This document shows positions 1,957 to 28,250 of a DNA stretch of 64,000 nucleotides, in pieces. The position numbers were made by a program, and so were the translations under genes. The stretch's first letter is position 1; each line of letters starts with the position of its first letter. Source of the stretch: Shigella phage ESh21; sequence record ON528731. The stretch is one strand, 5' to 3'. The notes below the pieces were generated by a model that was not told the DNA's origin, searched no databases, and saw nothing but the letters and a program-made list of their open reading frames with translations.

Positions 1957-2751
1957 ATGGGCATTGTAAAAATCATTAAAGGTGATATCTTTGAAGCCTT
2001 TGATAACCAGAAGTTTGATATCATTGGTCACGGATGCAACTGCATGAACTTGATGGGTGCAGGTATTGCAGCAACAATCTCAAAACGCTACCCAAAAGCT
2101 TATGAGACTGACGCTGAAGTTTATGAGACAGTTGGTGGTGAGAACCATAAACCTGTACATCTTATGCTTGGCAATATCTCTGTAGCACGTTTCAAGCAGG
2201 GTCGAATTGCTAACCTATACACTCAGGTTATCACTGGTAAAGATGCACGTTACAATGCCTTAGAAGCAGCTTTGCAGCGTCTTAACAACTACTGCAAAGT
2301 AAACCAGCTTAAGAAGGTTGGTCTTCCAATGATTTGTGCAGGGATTGGTGGTCTGGATATCTTTGCAGTTACTTCAATCATTAACCAGACAATGAAAGAT
2401 GTAGACGTTTACCTTTATGTCTATGAAGAAACAATGCACAGACGACTAACCAATAACATAGTTGGTTGGAACAACTACAGTGAACCTCAACACTTTGATG
2501 GTGTCGCAGTTGTGAAGGATAATCAAGTTACACTACGGGTAAAACGGAAGGGTAAGGTGCATAAAAGTAACCCTCCGGTTGAGAAGTACTCTCTGAGTAA
2601 CGCTCAAGTTACCCACCCGTTACATGACCACTGTTTGAGAGCAGTAACATTTGGTGACAATGCAAGTGTTTACCTTCTTGCACAAGACCATGAAGAAGCT
2701 GATAAGATTATCTCTGATAAACGTTTTAGCTTTGTTGAAGCACGTAACTAA
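1957..2751 (+). CDS. Macro domain protein (ADP-ribose binding / ADP-ribosyl hydrolase-like) with C-terminal extension
   Basis: GDIF...FDIIGHGCNCMNLMGAGIAATI and KVGLPMICAGIGGLD resemble macro-domain motifs (GDIT, VNAAN..GGGV..AI, PxIxTGxxGxP). Confidence 0.65.
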   Translation: MGIVKIIKGDIFEAFDNQKFDIIGHGCNCMNLMGAGIAATISKRYPKAYETDAEVYETVGGENHKPVHLMLGNISVARFKQGRIANLYTQVITGKDARYNALEAALQRLNNYCKVNQLKKVGLPMICAGIGGLDIFAVTSIINQTMKDVDVYLYVYEETMHRRLTNNIVGWNNYSEPQHFDGVAVVKDNQVTLRVKRKGKVHKSNPPVEKYSLSNAQVTHPLHDHCLRAVTFGDNASVYLLAQDHEEADKIISDKRFSFVEARN

Positions 2752-8837: not shown

Positions 8838-9089
8838 ATGGCTACTATCCGCGCAACTGTAAACACTTTTGGTTTTAACGTGTTAGATGTTAAGTTTGAT
8901 ATGGTAGGTACTGGTGATGCTTTTGGAATGGTTGAAATGTGCTTAAAGGCAACTATTCAGGACTATAAACCAACTGAAAACTTCTGGAAAGAAGTCAAGC
9001 AGGAAGTCTTGAAAGATGGTGTGACGTCTTACTATTGGGGTGATTCTCTTATCACGCTTTACCATCAAAAATTTGGTTATAATGACTAA
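8838..9089 (+). CDS. Hypothetical early protein
   Basis: Conserved leader upstream. Confidence 0.5.
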   Translation: MATIRATVNTFGFNVLDVKFDMVGTGDAFGMVEMCLKATIQDYKPTENFWKEVKQEVLKDGVTSYYWGDSLITLYHQKFGYND

Positions 9090-9129
9090 CAAGACGCCGC
9101 AACGGGGCAAATAGCCCCAGACACCTTTC

Positions 9130-9153
9130 AAGCCCCTTAAATGGGGCTTTTTA
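9130..9153 (+). terminator. Rho-independent terminator ending the early plus-strand array
   Basis: AGCCCC-TTAAAT-GGGGCT followed by TTTTT. Confidence 0.7.
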
Positions 9154-9540
9154 ACGTCTATACAATCTCTTTCTAGACATTTAGAGTAATAACTCTATAG
9201 CTTACTCTATAACCTCTTATCAAATCAACTTAAATATAAGCCCATAACCCGAAAGGGAAGGGCAACCATTAAAACGCTCTATAACGCTCTATAACAGCCT
9301 TATCAACCTAACTTAAGCAATCATATTAACCCACTCTAAAAATCCCTTTATAGAGCTTCCTAGAGCCTTAAAAGAATCTTATAAGGGTGTAAGCTTTATC
9401 ATCTCGTTAGTCTCTTGTGAATATCTAAACAGGGCTGCAAAGTCACTTAAAAGTTACGTAAAAAGAGCTATAAAGTATCGTAAACACTAGCCCCCTTAAC
9501 ATTTCTTTAACAAAATCTTAACAATCCCTACATAGTTATG

Positions 9541-10026
9541 CTTGTTAGCAACTTGTTAGCACCTTGTTAAATCTCTGTTAAGACTACGTTACAACCTTGT
9601 TAGGCTCTTTGAAGTCCCTATATAAGCCCCTGTAAAGGGCTATAAAGAGCTATACAGGTAATTGGGCTATAGATACTAGTAAGAACCTTAGAAGAGGCTA
9701 CATAGAGCTATACAGGGCTTTTAAGAGGGCTGTTTAGAGAATCACTGAGAGGGATAGGGAACTATAAGAGAAGAGAAGTTGTGTTTGTAAACAATCACTG
9801 TGACCATGTTAATAAATGGTTAAACATGTTAAGAACTTAATAGACACTTGTTAATTATCTTAACAAAATAACTTTTAAATTTAACATGTTAGGGACTTGT
9901 TAGTAATTTGTTAAACCCTTGTAAGAACTGTTAAACTCTTGTTACATCCTTGTTAGAACTGTTAAGGGATTGTTAAGAACTATGGAGACTTGTTAGAGAC
10001 TTGTTAGAGTTGTAAAGAAATTGTTA
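9541..10026. repeat. Array of more than 20 YTTGTTAR repeats, the 9887-10026 run phased at about 10.5 bp
   Basis: TGTTA starts at 9887, 9898, 9909, 9920, 9929, 9940, 9951, 9960, 9971, 9991, 10002, 10011, 10022. Confidence 0.7.
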
Positions 10027-10279
10027 ATGATATTTTAAGATTTTGCAAAGGGGATGTTACAGGGCTGTTAAGGGCTACCAAGCAGATATACACCCTTTGT
10101 AGATATTTTTCAGATACTCCCAAGAACCTAAAAAGTGACCTACCTAGTCTATTTTATAAAAATTTTATAGAACTGAATAACTATCTATACACTATCTTCT
10201 ATAAAACAGGTAATAACAGGCTTATAAGATATCTTGTTAGTAACGTGTTAGACCTTGTAGGATAAGCCTTTACAGGGAA

Positions 10280-10560
10280 TACCTGTTTAGTGCTATATAA
10301 CAGTCTATATAGAGGCTTAGTAATCCCTAGTGAACCATCTATAGAGGGTATCATCCTTAACATAGAGATTAAGATGGATATAGGGGCTTCTAAGGGGCTA
10401 TGGAGAAGCTAGGAAGGTGATTGTATAGGTGTGGAAGAGGGCTTGTTAGAGAGCTTTATAGAGGGCTATTTAGAAGGTGCTATATAGTTTCACTAGATAG
10501 GGACTAAGAGGCTATATAGATACTATATAATACTATATAGAGAGTATGCTTAGATAGGTT
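10280..10560. repeat. Cluster of palindromic GCTATATAG-type repeats
   Basis: Copies near 10283, 10297, 10349, 10455, 10479, 10511, 10522, 10532; related GCTATAAAG copies at 9461-9720. Confidence 0.6.
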
Positions 10561-10663
10561 GTTGAAGAGGGTATTGATATTTTATCACATATCATGGTGA
10601 CCAAAGATGAACGGAGTGAATCCAAATTTTATAAGAACTATAAATTTCGTAAATTTTACTCAA

Positions 10664-10711
10664 TAAAAAGCCCCTATGAGATAGATTCTATCGAATCCAT
10701 ATTAAGGGGCT
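10664..10711 (-). terminator. Rho-independent terminator for the minus-strand operon
   Basis: Minus-strand hairpin AGCCCCT...AGGGGCT followed by T-run. Confidence 0.55.
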
Positions 10712-10720
10712 ATGTAGTTC

Positions 10721-11392
10721 TTAGCAAAGGTTCTCTATAACAGCCTGAATAGCTGGAATAGTCGTGTGAAAGAAGTGAGTGTCTCCGTTATGTGATTCTC
10801 GTATCTGTAACATGATAGCGTGACCCTTGATAGGGTAGCATTGAATGTGATAACGATTCCCGTTAAACACTGAACCAAACCCTGTACAGAAACTTTCCAA
10901 GTCAGCTTTAGAAAGAAACTCTTCTTTCCCTGTGATTTTTATACAGACACCTCTATTAACTCGTGAAGGGTTTATATCTTCTGCAAAGAGCATCTGTTGA
11001 CCACCTAAAGAGGTCATAGAGATTTCTTTACGGTTCTGCTGCTTAACATACATCTCAAGCTTCTTCAAAGTCTCTTCATAGAACGGATAATATTTATTCA
11101 CAAAGATACCTTCAAGTGGCTCTTTACCTGAGTCTTCTCGTTCCATCTTAAGTCGATTAACAAGTAATTCTAAAGACCACTTCTCACTTTCATCAAGATA
11201 TGTATTGATATCATCTAGACTCAGTACCAGATACTTTCTTTCAAGTTCAAACTTTTTCATCTCTATCAAATCCTTAAAACATTTCTTAGTAATTGCTTCC
11301 CATTCTTCGGAGTTCTTCCGCTTCCTCTTCAGATGGGGAACCATATCTGTTAAGTTCTTCCAACTCTTCTTCAGTAGGTGTCCCATAATCAC
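10721..11392 (-). CDS. Hypothetical protein
   Basis: ORF in track. Confidence 0.5.
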   Translation of the reverse strand: MIMGHLLKKSWKNLTDMVPHLKRKRKNSEEWEAITKKCFKDLIEMKKFELERKYLVLSLDDINTYLDESEKWSLELLVNRLKMEREDSGKEPLEGIFVNKYYPFYEETLKKLEMYVKQQNRKEISMTSLGGQQMLFAEDINPSRVNRGVCIKITGKEEFLSKADLESFCTGFGSVFNGNRYHIQCYPIKGHAIMLQIRESHNGDTHFFHTTIPAIQAVIENLC

Positions 11393-16928: not shown

Positions 16929-17813
16929 TTAACCTCCTACTACGTTAACCACTACAGTAGCTGGGTTTGAAGTAACACTTCCACCTGCTCCAGTAACTAC
17001 ACATACATAACTTCCTGCATCACCAGCAGTCGTAGTATTCTCTTTGGTGTAGGTTGCTGCTGTAGCACCAGAGATTTCTACATTATCTTTCTTCCACTGG
17101 TAACCTGTAGCTCCGGTTGCAACAATATCAAGAGTCAGTGTGTCACCTTCAGTGATTTCTTGGTTTGCTGGCTGTTTAGTGATTACTGGAAGTGCATTCA
17201 CAGTAACTGTTGCAGCATCTGAAGTGACAGTTGCACCACCATCACCAGTAACTACACAGGTGTAAGACCCAGCATCAGCAGGGGTTACGTTTGTTTTAGT
17301 GTATGTTGCAGAAGTTGCACCAGAGATGTTAGAAGCACCCTTCTTCCACTGGTAACCAGTTGCATTTGTAGCAACAACTGTCAAGGTTAGAGTACCACCC
17401 TCATTAACAGTTTGGTTAGTTGGCTGCGTGGTGATAGCTGGTGGCACAACTGCATCAATCAGTTTAGCATTCAGCATTGAGAAAGGTTTAACCCTTGCAA
17501 GCCATTCACAGTAAATAGTGTCAACATCTTTACCGTTGATGATTGCATACTGCAAATCCATGAAGAAGTCAGCAGTTCTCATTTGAGCACCTACAGAGTA
17601 TAGTAGTTCTTCAGAGAATGGAACTGTGTAGCTTGGGGTGTAGTTTAAATCGGTAACCTCAGCAATGTCTGACTCAGGCCACGGAGAGCTATATGTCAGT
17701 GGTAGCACAGCTTCTTGATACGTTCTGAAGTCGTATCTCTTACCAGCTTTAACATTCGCAATAAAAACCTTTACGAACTCTTTAAAATCTGGATATGTTT
17801 TTGCTTTAATCAT
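16929..17813 (-). CDS. Protein with two tandem Ig-like domains
   Basis: Two ~80-aa repeats (TLTLxVVATxATGYQWKK...AGSYxCVVTGxGG); N-terminal domain paralogous to 17810..18178. Confidence 0.6.
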   Translation of the reverse strand: MIKAKTYPDFKEFVKVFIANVKAGKRYDFRTYQEAVLPLTYSSPWPESDIAEVTDLNYTPSYTVPFSEELLYSVGAQMRTADFFMDLQYAIINGKDVDTIYCEWLARVKPFSMLNAKLIDAVVPPAITTQPTNQTVNEGGTLTLTVVATNATGYQWKKGASNISGATSATYTKTNVTPADAGSYTCVVTGDGGATVTSDAATVTVNALPVITKQPANQEITEGDTLTLDIVATGATGYQWKKDNVEISGATAATYTKENTTTAGDAGSYVCVVTGAGGSVTSNPATVVVNVVGG

Positions 17814-25079: not shown

Positions 25080-25110
25080 CTTCTAAGGGTTCTTACGAGA
25101 GTCCTTAAAT

Positions 25111-25187
25111 GTGGCCTTATCATAAATGGATAATGACCCATGCTGTGAACATGGTCTATACGGGTTCGATTCCCGTAGGTCACCCCA
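25111..25187 (+). tRNA. tRNA-His (anticodon GUG)
   Basis: Anticodon stem CCATG/CATGG, loop CTGTGAA, discriminator C; no encoded G-1. Confidence 0.65.
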
Positions 25188-25193
25188 ATTCAA

Positions 25194-25270
25194 TAGCTCA
25201 ATTAGCTTATATGGTTAAAGCGCGTGTCTGAAAAACATGAGAACAGGGTTCAAATCCCGATGGGCTACCA
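25194..25270 (+). tRNA. tRNA-Phe (anticodon GAA)
   Basis: Loop CTGAAAA; T-stem weak; 3' boundary uncertain. Confidence 0.5.
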
Positions 25271-25285
25271 ATTTATAGGTGCATA

Positions 25286-26020
25286 ATGAAAGAGATGACA
25301 GGACAAGGTAAAGAGATTTTCAGTCTCCTTAAATCCGGTAACGGGTTCTCTAACCCTCTTATTACTGGTGCAGCAGTTCTTGGTGGTACAGTTGCTGCTT
25401 CTCAGTCATTAGTAACTTCTATTGGTTCTGTATCAGACCCAGCTACCCAGCAAATTCTTATTGCTGCTGGCTTGACAACTGCCTTACTAAGCAGCTTTAC
25501 AACAAGCCTTGGTAGCACCACTTCAACGACAACTACTTTAACTGACTATGGACAGAAGTCTGTAGATGAGTTTTCACAACGTATGCAAGTAGCTAAAGGT
25601 TACTCTAACGTTATGGGAGCAGCAGGTGAACAAGTCGGTTGTACACCGTTTAGTGGAATCATGGGAGTTGCTACAGAGTACGGTAACAAAGCTATGGATT
25701 TGATTAATACATCCATAGACGCTGTAAATGGCGTTCTAAGCGATTTACAAGATGCGATTGATAAAGGACTAGACACTATCTCTGAACTCGCTACACAAGC
25801 TGTTACAGCGATTAATGAGGGTATGGCAAAGATTACTGCCTACGCTAATGAAGTGGCTCAGATGATTGCAGATGAAGCAGCCCTGATTGCTGACTACCTT
25901 AAAACGAATATTAACGGTTTTCTTGCTAATGTCTTACCAGATTGGTTTGATGATGCTTGTAAAACTGGTGTGATTGATACAATCGCAACTCCAGAGATGA
26001 AAGATGCTCTAAACAAATAA
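25286..26020 (+). CDS. Hypothetical protein with Ala/Gly/Ser/Thr-rich N-terminal half
   Basis: 244-aa ORF between tRNAs. Confidence 0.55.
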   Translation: MKEMTGQGKEIFSLLKSGNGFSNPLITGAAVLGGTVAASQSLVTSIGSVSDPATQQILIAAGLTTALLSSFTTSLGSTTSTTTTLTDYGQKSVDEFSQRMQVAKGYSNVMGAAGEQVGCTPFSGIMGVATEYGNKAMDLINTSIDAVNGVLSDLQDAIDKGLDTISELATQAVTAINEGMAKITAYANEVAQMIADEAALIADYLKTNINGFLANVLPDWFDDACKTGVIDTIATPEMKDALNK

Positions 26021-26023
26021 TTT

Positions 26024-26116
26024 GGAAGATTAACCCTAAAAGGTAAGGGAGCAGTTTGCTAAACTGCCAGTAACCGAGAAATCGGCGTACCAGTTCAAGT
26101 CTGGTATCTTCCTCCA
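26024..26116 (+). tRNA. tRNA-Ser (anticodon GCU), long variable arm
   Basis: Acceptor GGAAGAT/ATCTTCC perfect, anticodon stem GCAGT/ACTGC, 93 nt. Confidence 0.7.
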
Positions 26117-26123
26117 AATTAAT

Positions 26124-26200
26124 GTGTCGGTGGCAGAAATGGATTATGCGCCTGTCTGCAAAACAGGTATATAAGGGTTCAAGTCCCTTCCGATACTCCA
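26124..26200 (+). tRNA. tRNA-Cys (anticodon GCA)
   Basis: Anticodon stem CCTGT/ACAGG, loop CTGCAAA, T-arm AAGGG-TTCAAGT-CCCTT. Confidence 0.65.
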
Positions 26201-26420: not shown

Positions 26421-26627
26421 ATGAACGAGACTAATGTTTACAAAGAACTATATGAAACTCAGAAACAGGCTCAAATGCTTCAAGCAACTGTAATGGCTGT
26501 GGCTGAACGTTTAATTGTTGCAACTGGTATTAACCCACAAGAAGCAACGATGGATAAACTTCTTAATTTAGTAGATGAAAAGTTTGGTGTAGAACCTAAA
26601 CAGGAATCTGAAGAAGTTTCTGAATAA
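26421..26627 (+). CDS. Small acidic protein upstream of large terminase (possible packaging accessory)
   Basis: ORF in track; position only. Confidence 0.4.
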   Translation: MNETNVYKELYETQKQAQMLQATVMAVAERLIVATGINPQEATMDKLLNLVDEKFGVEPKQESEEVSE

Positions 26628-26648
26628 TTCTATTTGCAGAGGTGCTTA

Positions 26649-28250
26649 ATGGACTTAAATGTTATTAAGCAGAAGCGAGTGGAAGATGTAAGGAAAGTCC
26701 TAGCAGGTGAGTTGGGGCTTTCTGAAGAAGTAAAAGATATTATCAAATCCTTTGGTAAAGACCCCTCTAAATTCCTTCCAACTCAAATTCTGACTTTATT
26801 AAGATATACCCCAGACCAAGTAAGACTCATCTTTAAATTGATGACTGACAAGAACTATGTAGCTCCACAGCCTGGCTCTCAAGAGGTATTCTTGAATACC
26901 AATGCTGACTTGGTGTTATATGGTGGTGCTGCTGGTGCTGGTAAGACTGCTGCCCTTTTAATGGACTCTTTGAGATTCATTGATGACCCTAACTATAACG
27001 CTGTATATTTCCGTCGAAATACTACACAGTTACAAGGTGGTTTATGGCCAGCAGCTAAAAAGCTATTTGGTAAGTTTGGTGGAATCCCACACGAACAGAA
27101 AATGACTATTACGTTCCCTTCAGGAGCGACTATTAAGTTTACTTATTTGGAACTTGAAAAACACTCAGAAGGTCACCAAGGTATCGAATACTCAGCTATT
27201 TACTTCGACGAAGGTACACACTTCTCGGCTTCACAGATTTCATATCTTCAGACACGTTTGCGTTCTGGTGCTGAAGGTGACTCATATATGAAGATTTCCA
27301 TGAACCCAGATAGAGACCACTTTATTTACGATTGGGTAGAACCATTCCTAGATGAAGAAGGTTATCCAGACCCGTCTAAATGCGGTAGGATTCGTTGGTA
27401 TGTTATGAGTGATGGTGTAATGGTTTCTGATTGGGACAAGAATAAGATTCTTGAAATGTTCCCTCTAGAGATTCCTCAAACATATACCTTTATTTCTGGT
27501 ACGATTGATGACAACCCAATTCTTGATTTCTTAGAACCTAAGTATCGTGGTAAATTGGAAAATAACACACCAGTTAACGTTGCTCGTCTTCGTTTTGGTA
27601 ACTGGAAAGCTCGTGCAGAAGGTTCAAACTATTGGCAAAGACAATGGTGTGAGATTGTTGATAGTGTTCCAGCAGACGTATTTGATGTTCGTGCTTGGGA
27701 CTTAGCAGCAACATTACCCTCAGAAGTTAACCCTAATCCTGACTGGACAGCAGGTGTGAAAATGGGTAAATCTAAAAAAGATGGTTGCTATTATGTAATT
27801 AACGTAGTAAGATTTAGAGATAGACCTTCTGGAGTTGAAACACAAATTAATATGACTGCTGAAGGTGATGGTAAACGTACTGGTATTTTTATCCCACAAG
27901 ACCCAGGCGCTGCTGGTAAATCCTACGCAACATCTCTTATTAGAAAACTTGCTGAGAAAGGCTATAGAGCAAGAGCTAAACCTACCAATAAAGATAAAGT
28001 TACCCGTTTTGCGGGTTTCTCTGCTGCTTCAGAAGCTGGTCTTGTTAAAATTGTTAGAGGCTCTTGGAATGAAGCTTATTTCCAAGAACTAGAAGGTTTT
28101 TGTGGTGATGGTCGTACTAAGGATGACCAAGTGGATGCTACCAGTGATGCTTTCAACAGTCTTAATGAAGTTAAACTATTCAAGCCACCTTCAATGGGTA
28201 CTCATACAGATATTGTAAGAAGTAATCCATACGAAGGGCTGAGATTCTAA
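26649..28250 (+). CDS. terL: Terminase large subunit
   Basis: Walker A-like GGAAGAGKT; ~530 aa; followed by portal; start set to ATG 26649 with GAGG SD. Confidence 0.8.
   Translation: MDLNVIKQKRVEDVRKVLAGELGLSEEVKDIIKSFGKDPSKFLPTQILTLLRYTPDQVRLIFKLMTDKNYVAPQPGSQEVFLNTNADLVLYGGAAGAGKTAALLMDSLRFIDDPNYNAVYFRRNTTQLQGGLWPAAKKLFGKFGGIPHEQKMTITFPSGATIKFTYLELEKHSEGHQGIEYSAIYFDEGTHFSASQISYLQTRLRSGAEGDSYMKISMNPDRDHFIYDWVEPFLDEEGYPDPSKCGRIRWYVMSDGVMVSDWDKNKILEMFPLEIPQTYTFISGTIDDNPILDFLEPKYRGKLENNTPVNVARLRFGNWKARAEGSNYWQRQWCEIVDSVPADVFDVRAWDLAATLPSEVNPNPDWTAGVKMGKSKKDGCYYVINVVRFRDRPSGVETQINMTAEGDGKRTGIFIPQDPGAAGKSYATSLIRKLAEKGYRARAKPTNKDKVTRFAGFSAASEAGLVKIVRGSWNEAYFQELEGFCGDGRTKDDQVDATSDAFNSLNEVKLFKPPSMGTHTDIVRSNPYEGLRF

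Follow-up and report, generated by a model that had tools for sequence, protein, structure and literature searches.

What purpose is served by an array of short, regularly spaced TGTTA repeats in a gene-free part of the genome of Shigella phage ESh21 (sequence record ON528731)? The array lies at about 9541-10026 of the 64,000-nucleotide stretch of this genome that was analysed here (referred to as the window), and it had been singled out in a first-pass annotation as a possible cis-acting nucleoprotein site, such as a replication origin, a partition site or a packaging site, or as an array that titrates a host DNA-binding protein. In the current study, the array was compared with its counterparts in related phages and with known repeat systems. 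Its elements were found to recur in phase with the DNA helix, to make up the body of the predicted direct terminal repeat (DTR) of the phage, and to be present in mirrored copies at the predicted cut sites. We propose, with a probability that we put at roughly 55%, that the phased array is a platform for protein binding along one face of the helix, on which terminase-dependent end formation and packaging of the genome would depend.

The source genome belongs to a Felix O1-like myophage (subfamily Ounavirinae). The array falls in a gap at which two gene blocks converge, with the + strand block ending at 9089 and the - strand block ending at 10721, and no open reading frame (ORF) of at least 40 aa was found in 9132-10198. 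The homologous gap in Felix O1 is the gene 23/24 junction, where two convergent transcription units meet (PMC3185647). The 1.63-kb segment 9090-10720 matched 254-273 phage records, the best match being Shigella phage ESh22 (92%); Citrobacter phages Moogle and Michonne matched the same segment at 84-85%.

Within 9541-10026, there are 19 copies of the pentamer TGTTA on the + strand and 2 on the - strand, compared with a maximum of 4 in any 486-bp stretch elsewhere in the window. The strict octamer YTTGTTAR was counted 10 times on the + strand and once on the - strand (background, 0.21 per 486 bp on both strands); when one mismatch was allowed, the count rose to 21 (18 + 3; background, 3.2). The array also extends beyond 9541-10026, with inverted copies to the left at 9497, 9508, and 9519 (11 bp apart) and direct copies to the right at 10055 and 10066. 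The DTR interval as a whole contains 21 TGTTA on the + strand in 590 bp, and about 25-30 copies of a 7-8-bp element, the majority of them in one orientation, fill it; the motif logo of this element reads a-C-T-TGTTA-R-R-R. When two TGTAA variants were counted, the successive spacings in 9887-10026 were 11, 11, 11, 9, 11, 11, 9, 11, 20, 11, 9, and 11 bp, with a mean of 10.4 bp. Steps of 11 bp thus dominate this series, and a 9-bp step recurs at every third or fourth unit, giving a 31-bp super-unit (11+11+9). Helical phase was measured by a Rayleigh test of the 19 elements of the right block, in which the best period was 10.30 bp with R=0.83, against a 99th percentile of 0.62 for random positions in that block; at a period of exactly 11.0 bp, R was only 0.12. 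The local 11/11/9 spacing therefore keeps about 19 elements in phase at 10.3 bp across about 280 bp, and because of this phase test the elements are placed on one face of the helix over about 25 turns. Most of the first-pass description was borne out by these measurements, namely the excess over chance (although the array starts earlier than had been described), the 9-11-bp spacing with a mean of about 10.5 bp (one skipped unit of 20 bp excepted), the location on one helical face, and the absence of ORFs. The count of more than 20 copies of YTTGTTAR, by contrast, stands only when one mismatch is tolerated and fails for the strict octamer.

To place the array in an evolutionary frame, 12 phages were aligned: the window, nine enterobacterial relatives, and two Erwinia phages (genus Kolesnikvirus). 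The invariant columns of this alignment are the TGTTA cores. Among eight enterobacterial phages, identity was 0.90 at core positions versus 0.73-0.78 in the spacers, and when the core mask was slid along the alignment, conservation was highest at register 0 (to within one base) and lowest at +/-5. All 10 enterobacterial phages carry 15-22 TGTTA on the + strand of the DTR; the DTR of the Erwinia phages, despite having little other similarity to the window, contains 14 on the + strand and 7-8 on the - strand. The best period was 10.28-10.46 bp in 12/12 phages, with R of 0.76-0.91. R was above the 99th percentile of the null in 10/10 enterobacterial phages, and the Erwinia pair fell just under it (0.77 vs 0.81-0.82). 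Insertions and deletions (indels) of at least 9 bp measured 9, 11, 11, 21, 22, 22, 22, 23, and 34 bp, which are close to whole helical turns, and it is these near-whole-turn steps that give rise to DTR lengths of 569-625 bp. A 21-bp insertion at about 9768-9788, which contains a small palindrome (TGTTTGTAAACA), was unique to the window among the 10 enterobacterial phages aligned; it equals two helical turns, and the phase is therefore kept. The first-pass annotation would have been undermined by absence of the array from close relatives, yet the array was retained in 11/11 relatives examined, including the two Erwinia phages. The array is a strongly selected cis element. Its phase-locking, the conservation of cores over spacers, and the phase-preserving indels together support the earlier suggestion of a cis-acting nucleoprotein site, and the array has the signature of a cooperative protein-DNA complex in which protein occupies one face of the DNA or the DNA is wrapped.

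The DTR was located by homology, its position being already on record for some relatives. The record of phage HP1 annotates 570-bp repeat_regions at both ends, the two copies of which are identical; base 1 of HP1 (GCCCCCTTAACAT...) aligns with window position 9490, and base 570 (...GCTGTTAAGGGCTACC) aligns with 10079. For phage Ro111lw, the distance between the homologous boundary sequences is 613 bp, and its DTR as determined by PhageTerm is 613 bp (PMC6454146). For UAB_Phi87, the corresponding distance is 614 bp versus a published value of 608 bp. Moreover, the two Bal31-sensitive SpeI end fragments of UAB_Phi87 add up to 7141 bp (4322 + 2819), and the SpeI sites flanking the gap are 6568 bp apart; the excess of 573 bp is the size of a DTR. 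If the start of the UAB_Phi87 record were taken as a physical end, the gap would lie 14.6 kb from the termini. This placement is wrong, as the record was opened arbitrarily and the SpeI arithmetic puts the ends in the gap. The records of HP1, I14.1, and Ro111lw start at the base homologous to 9490, those of ECOH1 and BPS15Q2 start within about 15 bp of it, and that of Erwinia phage Prophecy begins 1 nt from the homologous point. Given the HP1 repeats, the Ro111lw and UAB_Phi87 distances, the SpeI fragments, and the Prophecy record start, the array is assigned to the inside of the predicted DTR (9490-10079), of which it would be the body. The repeat is present in a single copy in the window because the assembly was joined through it. 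Consistent with this type of genome end, the terminase of the Felix O1 group clusters with those of DTR packagers (PMC4837284).

The edges of the predicted DTR are organized in mirror fashion. When read inward in six phages, the left end is GCCCCC-TTAACA-N5-TTAACA-N5-TTAACA and the right end is GGTAGCCC-TTAACA-N5-GTAACA, and a shared GCCC(CC)TTAACA element thus lies 6-8 nt from both ends in mirror orientation. In the window, the two edges form an inverted repeat (9492-9521 vs 10035-10064) that is 77% complementary. The left-terminal block is nearly invariant among the enterobacterial relatives, and the boundary blocks GCCCCCTT... and ...GGGCTACC are among the best-conserved alignment columns of the enterobacterial phages. 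Just outside the right boundary, the junction AAGCAGATATACAC hardly varies among the 11 relatives with coverage there, Erwinia phages included. The junction sequence AAGCAGATATACA is likewise conserved in the Erwinia phages, and together with the boundary blocks it constitutes the most conserved part of the gap. In the two Erwinia phages, TAACA elements at 11-bp spacing run from the record end onward, and the right-terminal block is partly conserved. A hairpin like that at the right end of T7 was rejected, as no hairpins were found at the DTR edges, which fold no better than shuffled sequences. In Shigella phage vB_SflM_004, the left-terminal block is replaced by unrelated sequence (GCATCTTCTTGTGTTTAATCAAGAAG... 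vs GCCCCCTTAACATTTC...), and a second divergent patch substitutes part of the right block; this divergence could reflect recombination or an assembly problem. The coordinates of all features are collected in Table 1.

Table 1. Positions in the window of the predicted DTR, its component blocks and flanks, and the large terminase gene.
Feature	Position	Strand	Description
Predicted DTR, 590 bp	9490-10079		By homology; single copy in the circularly joined assembly
Left-terminal conserved block	9490-9540	-	GCCCCC, three inverted TGTTAA elements (TAACA at 9497, 9508, 9519; strict 11 bp), then CCCTACATAGTTATG
Left direct sub-array	9541-9603	+	CTTGTTAG/A at 9541, 9552, 9563, 9574, 9596; degenerate ACGTTAC at 9586; 11-bp register throughout
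Central DTR	9604-9804		Without TGTTA phasing; GCT(A/T)T(A/C/T)(A/T)AG units at 9639, 9649, 9707, 9717, 9729, 10-12 bp apart
Right direct array	9805-10026	+	About 17 TGTTA/TGTAA elements, 11/11/9; phase-locked at 10.3 bp jointly with 10055 and 10066
Right-terminal conserved block	10027-10079	+	ATGATATTTTAAGATTTTGCAAAGGGGATGTTACAGGGCTGTTAAGGGCTACC; read inward, mirrors the left terminus (GGTAGCCCTTAACAGCCCTGTAACA vs GCCCCCTTAACATTTCTTTAACA)
Junction AAGCAGATATACAC	10080-10095	+	Abuts the right DTR boundary on its outer side; possible component of the cleavage signal
Left non-coding flank	9090-9489		Last + strand gene to DTR; rich in CTATA/TATAG-type repeats
Right non-coding flank	10080-10720		AT-rich block 10150-10172; TGTTAG pair 10235, 10246; copy at 10444; dense GCTATNNAG/TCTATAG repeats 10380-10545
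Large terminase subunit	26634-28250	+	Pfam Terminase_6N, Terminase_6C; PHROG 979 'terminase large subunit', E=6.5e-232

The array is linked to end formation because it coincides with the DTR and because mirrored elements are located at the cut sites. Given this arrangement, we infer that a protein binds the array and takes part in cutting, and the following sequence of events is proposed. Each packaged linear DNA would carry the DTR at its two ends, and each concatemer junction would hold a single copy. A sequence-specific DNA-binding protein would bind cooperatively along one face of the array or wrap the DNA around itself; this protein would most probably be an unrecognised small terminase or another packaging or end-binding protein of the phage, possibly aided by a host factor. 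The bound array would mark the DTR for the large terminase, the outermost inward-pointing elements would position two cuts on opposite strands 6-8 nt away, and the DTR would be duplicated afterwards in the fashion of T7. The bound array might also signal the motor to stop once a genome length has been packaged. The DTR boundaries are where the large terminase subunit (Table 1) is expected to act. IHF is well known as an accessory factor in terminase complexes; no strict IHF consensus was found in the gap.

Candidates for the binding protein were sought among the phage genes. The 68-aa ORF at 26421-26627 (+), directly upstream of the large terminase gene and hence at the usual position of a small terminase, encodes a strongly acidic product without a Pfam or PDB match; it was rejected as the small terminase for its acidity and its lack of matches to known structures or families. 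Also rejected was the 244-aa DUF7217 protein, as it has a helical or structural look and its homologues are family-restricted, some of them with apolipoprotein-like helical hits. The genes flanking the gap match only PHROGs of unknown function. Finally, no winged-helix or OmpR-type phage protein was present among the 25 of 45 Pfam families listed for the 105 ORFs.

The gap contains a second repeat family in addition to the TGTTA elements. Units of the form GCT(A/T)T(A/C/T)(A/T)AG or TCTATAG, often 10-12 bp apart, fill the TGTTA-free parts of the gap (9090-9489, 9604-9800, and 10080-10720), in which the hexamers GCTATA, CTATAT, and TCTATA are enriched 15-30-fold compared with the rest of the window. 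The unit CTTGTTAGAG resembles a hybrid of the two families. This second family may be the site of a second protein. In Erwinia phage phiEa104, the left flank (1240-1560) carries phased (C/T)TTCTAAG at 11 bp, and the right flank (2270-2490) carries GTTAAGA runs. Because the Erwinia DTR keeps TGTTAA while its flanks carry other repeats, the DTR motif is shared across genera and the flank motif is specific to lineages. An AT-rich block (CTATTTTATAAAAATTTTATAG) at 10150-10172, which lies 70 bp outside the right DTR boundary, is conserved in most enterobacterial relatives, and the 40-bp stretch that starts at 10150 is 87% AT.

Several observations weigh against a packaging platform. The DTR was placed by homology, and the ends of ESh21 itself are deduced from those of its relatives. 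No assignment as a small terminase or other DNA-binding protein could be made among the ORF upstream of the large terminase gene, the DUF7217 protein, and the genes flanking the gap. The cut positions are asymmetric relative to the shared element, at 6 vs 8 nt. TGTTA pairs and the second repeat family are also present outside the DTR, which implies that the system is larger than the DTR itself. The terminal arrays of T7 and SP6, which offer the closest analogy, provide no proven mechanism, because to our knowledge their function was never established, and the heptamers reiterated at the T7 ends have stayed without an assigned role from their first description onward. Moreover, the 1.2-kb DTR of the distant Pseudomonas relative PaP1 is coding and free of arrays, and arrays are therefore not obligatory for this mode of packaging.

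Other explanations of the array were also considered. A non-coding RNA was ruled out, as an Rfam search of the array region returned zero matches at E<=1. A promoter region was likewise ruled out: 10 promoter-like sites were found versus 6.6 +/- 3.1 expected, the promoter-like matches being the TTAACA units themselves, and no terminator-like sites were found in the region. A host protein might instead occupy the array, in that its 25-35 direct repeats, with triplets of consensus strength a few bases from each predicted genome end, resemble binding sites for phosphorylated ArcA (ArcA-P), a host response regulator active in the anaerobic gut, which would then coat the termini. In one version of this explanation, ArcA-P could be a redox- or oxygen-dependent architectural or end-protecting factor in end formation and packaging; in another, the array, once replicated to hundreds of copies, could be a decoy by which ArcA-P is titrated and respiratory carbon oxidation is de-repressed, fuelling phage production. 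The titration of a host protein put forward in the first-pass annotation thereby gains a concrete candidate. The hosts of these phages are Enterobacterales (Escherichia, Salmonella, Shigella, Citrobacter, and Erwinia) and are expected to encode ArcA, which speaks in favour of such a role. Published ArcA sites consist of 2-5 direct repeats, 11 or 22 bp apart from centre to centre, that are bound cooperatively (PMC3798270, Park et al. 2013), and the runs of 3-4 units at 11 bp in the array fit this common multi-repeat architecture. When a matrix built from 115 published boxes (Park et al., PMC3798270; consensus TTGTTAATAAAATGTTAA) was applied to the window, 15 of the 24 sites whose scores were not below the 10th percentile of real boxes fell in 9496-10234. 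In the terminal triplet, the site TTGTTAAAGAAATGTTAA scored 20.3 bits, compared with 18.9 bits for the best real ArcA box, and an overlapping second site scored 17.4 bits. The DTR also contains 35 matches to a single repeat that score no lower than the lower quartile of real repeats (59/kb vs 17/kb elsewhere). This matrix test is partly circular, however, since the analysis started out from TGTTA at 11-bp spacing, and some finer details of the array depart from ArcA sites. G follows TGTTA in 24-31% of the copies in enterobacterial phages, versus 2-3% of real ArcA repeats and 0% of the copies in the Erwinia phage; the phage spacers are richer in purines and in GC than the AT-rich ArcA spacers; and the 9-bp resets are unlike known ArcA spacing, in which a 12-bp spacing already abolished binding at putP (PMC3798270). 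The array overlaps no promoter, and since the flanking genes converge, there is no outward-facing gene for ArcA to regulate. Among the host factors of Felix O1 in a randomly barcoded transposon sequencing (RB-TnSeq) screen in Salmonella are arcB, himA, himD (IHF), crp, and rpoN (PMC8744999). Disruption of these genes lowered Felix O1 infection in that screen, but arcA was absent from the Felix O1 hits in the stored screen data, and arcB, himA, and himD were common to a T5-like phage, with the authors suspecting RpoS activity behind much of the shared resistance network (PMC8744999). Nor is the pattern specific to ArcA, because 11-bp tandem repeats containing TGTTA occur in at least 107 unrelated viral contigs; T7 and SP6, moreover, carry comparable terminal arrays of other motifs. 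IMG/VR was also scanned for runs of four TGTTA spaced 11 bp apart, to see if the array is shared by enterobacterial phages outside this group; the hits (at least 120 loci) were mostly perfect 11-bp tandem repeats and were uninformative on ArcA, and the scan was discarded as an ArcA test. Examples of such perfect repeats are TGTTAGGTATA x15 and TGTTAAAGAAT x18 (loci L017, L056, L121, L054, L081, and others), and some are located at contig ends. Nothing specific was found in the literature on ArcA with Felix O1 or on transcriptomics of the group, and the literature searched contained no comparable virulent phage with a DNA sponge or with a host response regulator bound at its termini. On balance, an array made up of ArcA-P sites is judged unlikely, and in vitro binding of ArcA at the terminal sites of consensus strength seems likelier than functional binding.

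The array could also play a structural role without any dedicated protein, whether through intrinsic planar curvature, as a microhomology ladder by which DTRs anneal or recombine into concatemers, or in the handling of DNA in the capsid. Sequence-directed curvature requires just such an arrangement, with an asymmetric AT-rich element repeated in 10.3-bp phase for about 25 turns; in T7-type replication, the terminal repeats must recombine or anneal into concatemers; and whole-unit indel steps are the expected product of slippage between units. Yet neither curvature nor microhomology needs a pentamer that stays invariant from Felixounavirus to the Erwinia phages while the spacers drift, and the inverted copies at both cut sites are left unexplained, so that a purely structural role appears improbable. 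We consider it very unlikely that the array is an iteron-type replication origin, at which an initiator encoded by the phage would attach to the phased repeats, introduce a bend, and melt the AT-rich block close by. Iteron origins typically have direct repeats in helical phase, the conserved 87%-AT block (10150-10190) lies 70 bp to the right of the array, and other viral contigs commonly contain perfect 11-bp tandem repeats of TGTTA, some of which may act as origins. Neither a DnaA box (at up to 1 mismatch) nor a strict IHF consensus was found in the gap, however; no initiator gene was recognised, and no Rep-like family was present among the 25 of 45 Pfam families listed; and the primase-helicase resembles T7 gp4 (Toprim + DnaB_C) and lacks an origin-binding domain like that of P4 alpha. 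GC skew turns at the gap, but it tracks the convergent gene orientation and was therefore dropped as a sign of an origin. The coincidence of the array with the DTR and the mirrored cut sites are, moreover, accounted for by packaging and not by an origin. A plasmid-type partition centromere is scarcely credible: the short direct repeats of R1 parC, 11-bp iterons about one helical turn apart, bear a formal resemblance to the array, which is the only point in its favour. The phage family is virulent and has linear DTR genomes, the array coincides with the genome ends, and neither a partition ATPase nor a centromere-binding protein was present among the 25 of 45 Pfam families listed (105 ORFs). 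Thus, of the functions put forward in the first-pass annotation, packaging is the best fit, given that the array is by homology the body of the DTR, where terminase makes the ends; an origin gained no support from a search for DnaA boxes, an initiator gene, or an iteron-binding primase domain, and partition is implausible for a virulent phage.

Three features elsewhere in the window were also recorded. The + strand carries 25 tRNA genes at 21465-26200, with the divergent promoter region on one side and the large terminase gene on the other. At 1957-2751 (+), among small genes of early type, a 264-aa Macro-domain protein is encoded, and 16929-17813 (-) codes for a 294-aa protein with two immunoglobulin-like domains.

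Neither the internal phased array nor its resemblance to ArcA boxes was described in the literature searched. Short DTRs are frequent in therapeutic and model phages, and how terminases recognise and duplicate them is poorly understood. The Felix O1 group offers a clearer version of the problem, with a motif under purifying selection, phasing on one helical face, indels of whole turns, and mirrored copies at the cut sites, and the model of a packaging platform is directly testable. In addition, with the boundary sequences as a guide, the true ends of the roughly 270 Ounavirinae genomes in databases can be assigned from sequence alone. Should the ArcA match prove functional, maturation of the phage genome or takeover of the host would be tied to the oxygen status of the gut, which would be relevant to phage therapy with Felix O1-like phages.

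Among known systems, the short DTR of the T7 type is likewise an exact, non-coding repeat of a few hundred bp, present at both ends and densely packed with copies of a 7-bp motif that point the same way. T7 has 11 copies of CCTAAAG (counted as CTAAAG) in its first 340 bp versus 0.8 expected, at 13-bp spacing, in and beside its repeat; in SP6, the motif is CCTTAGT, with 7 CTTAGT at 12-bp spacing in a run of about 90 bp just after the DTR. In the Felix O1 group, by contrast, the motif is a different one and fills the DTR itself, and it keeps a 10.3-bp phase, whereas the 12-13-bp spacing of T7 and SP6 drifts round the helix. Mirror-image copies are found at both cut sites, end hairpins are lacking, and ESh21, a myovirus unrelated to those two phages, has a large terminase of the T4 type. 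Compared with the ArcA-P operators of Escherichia coli (PMC3798270), the array shares the (T/A)TGTTAA core, the 11-bp spacing, the runs of 3-4 units, and the occasional 22-bp skips, but it has 25-35 units instead of 2-5, frequent G after TGTTA, less AT-rich spacers, and 9-bp resets, and it lies at a phage terminus without overlapping a promoter.

The array can also be set beside the pac and cos regions at which small terminases act, such as the pacL and pacR boxes of SPP1, the R sites of lambda cosB with IHF, and the pac hexamers of P1. There, too, several short repeats beside the terminase cut nucleate a bent or wrapped nucleoprotein complex. Those regions, found in phages with headful or cohesive-end packaging, contain 3-7 elements, unlike the array, in which about 25 elements lie inside a predicted exact DTR. 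A further parallel comes from the 'a' sequence of herpes simplex virus. It belongs to a eukaryotic virus, has GC-rich 12-bp units without evident helical-face logic, and bears no sequence relationship to the array; like the predicted DTR, however, it combines a reiterated interior (DR2/DR4) with unique, conserved edges (pac1/pac2) that carry the signals for cleavage and packaging.

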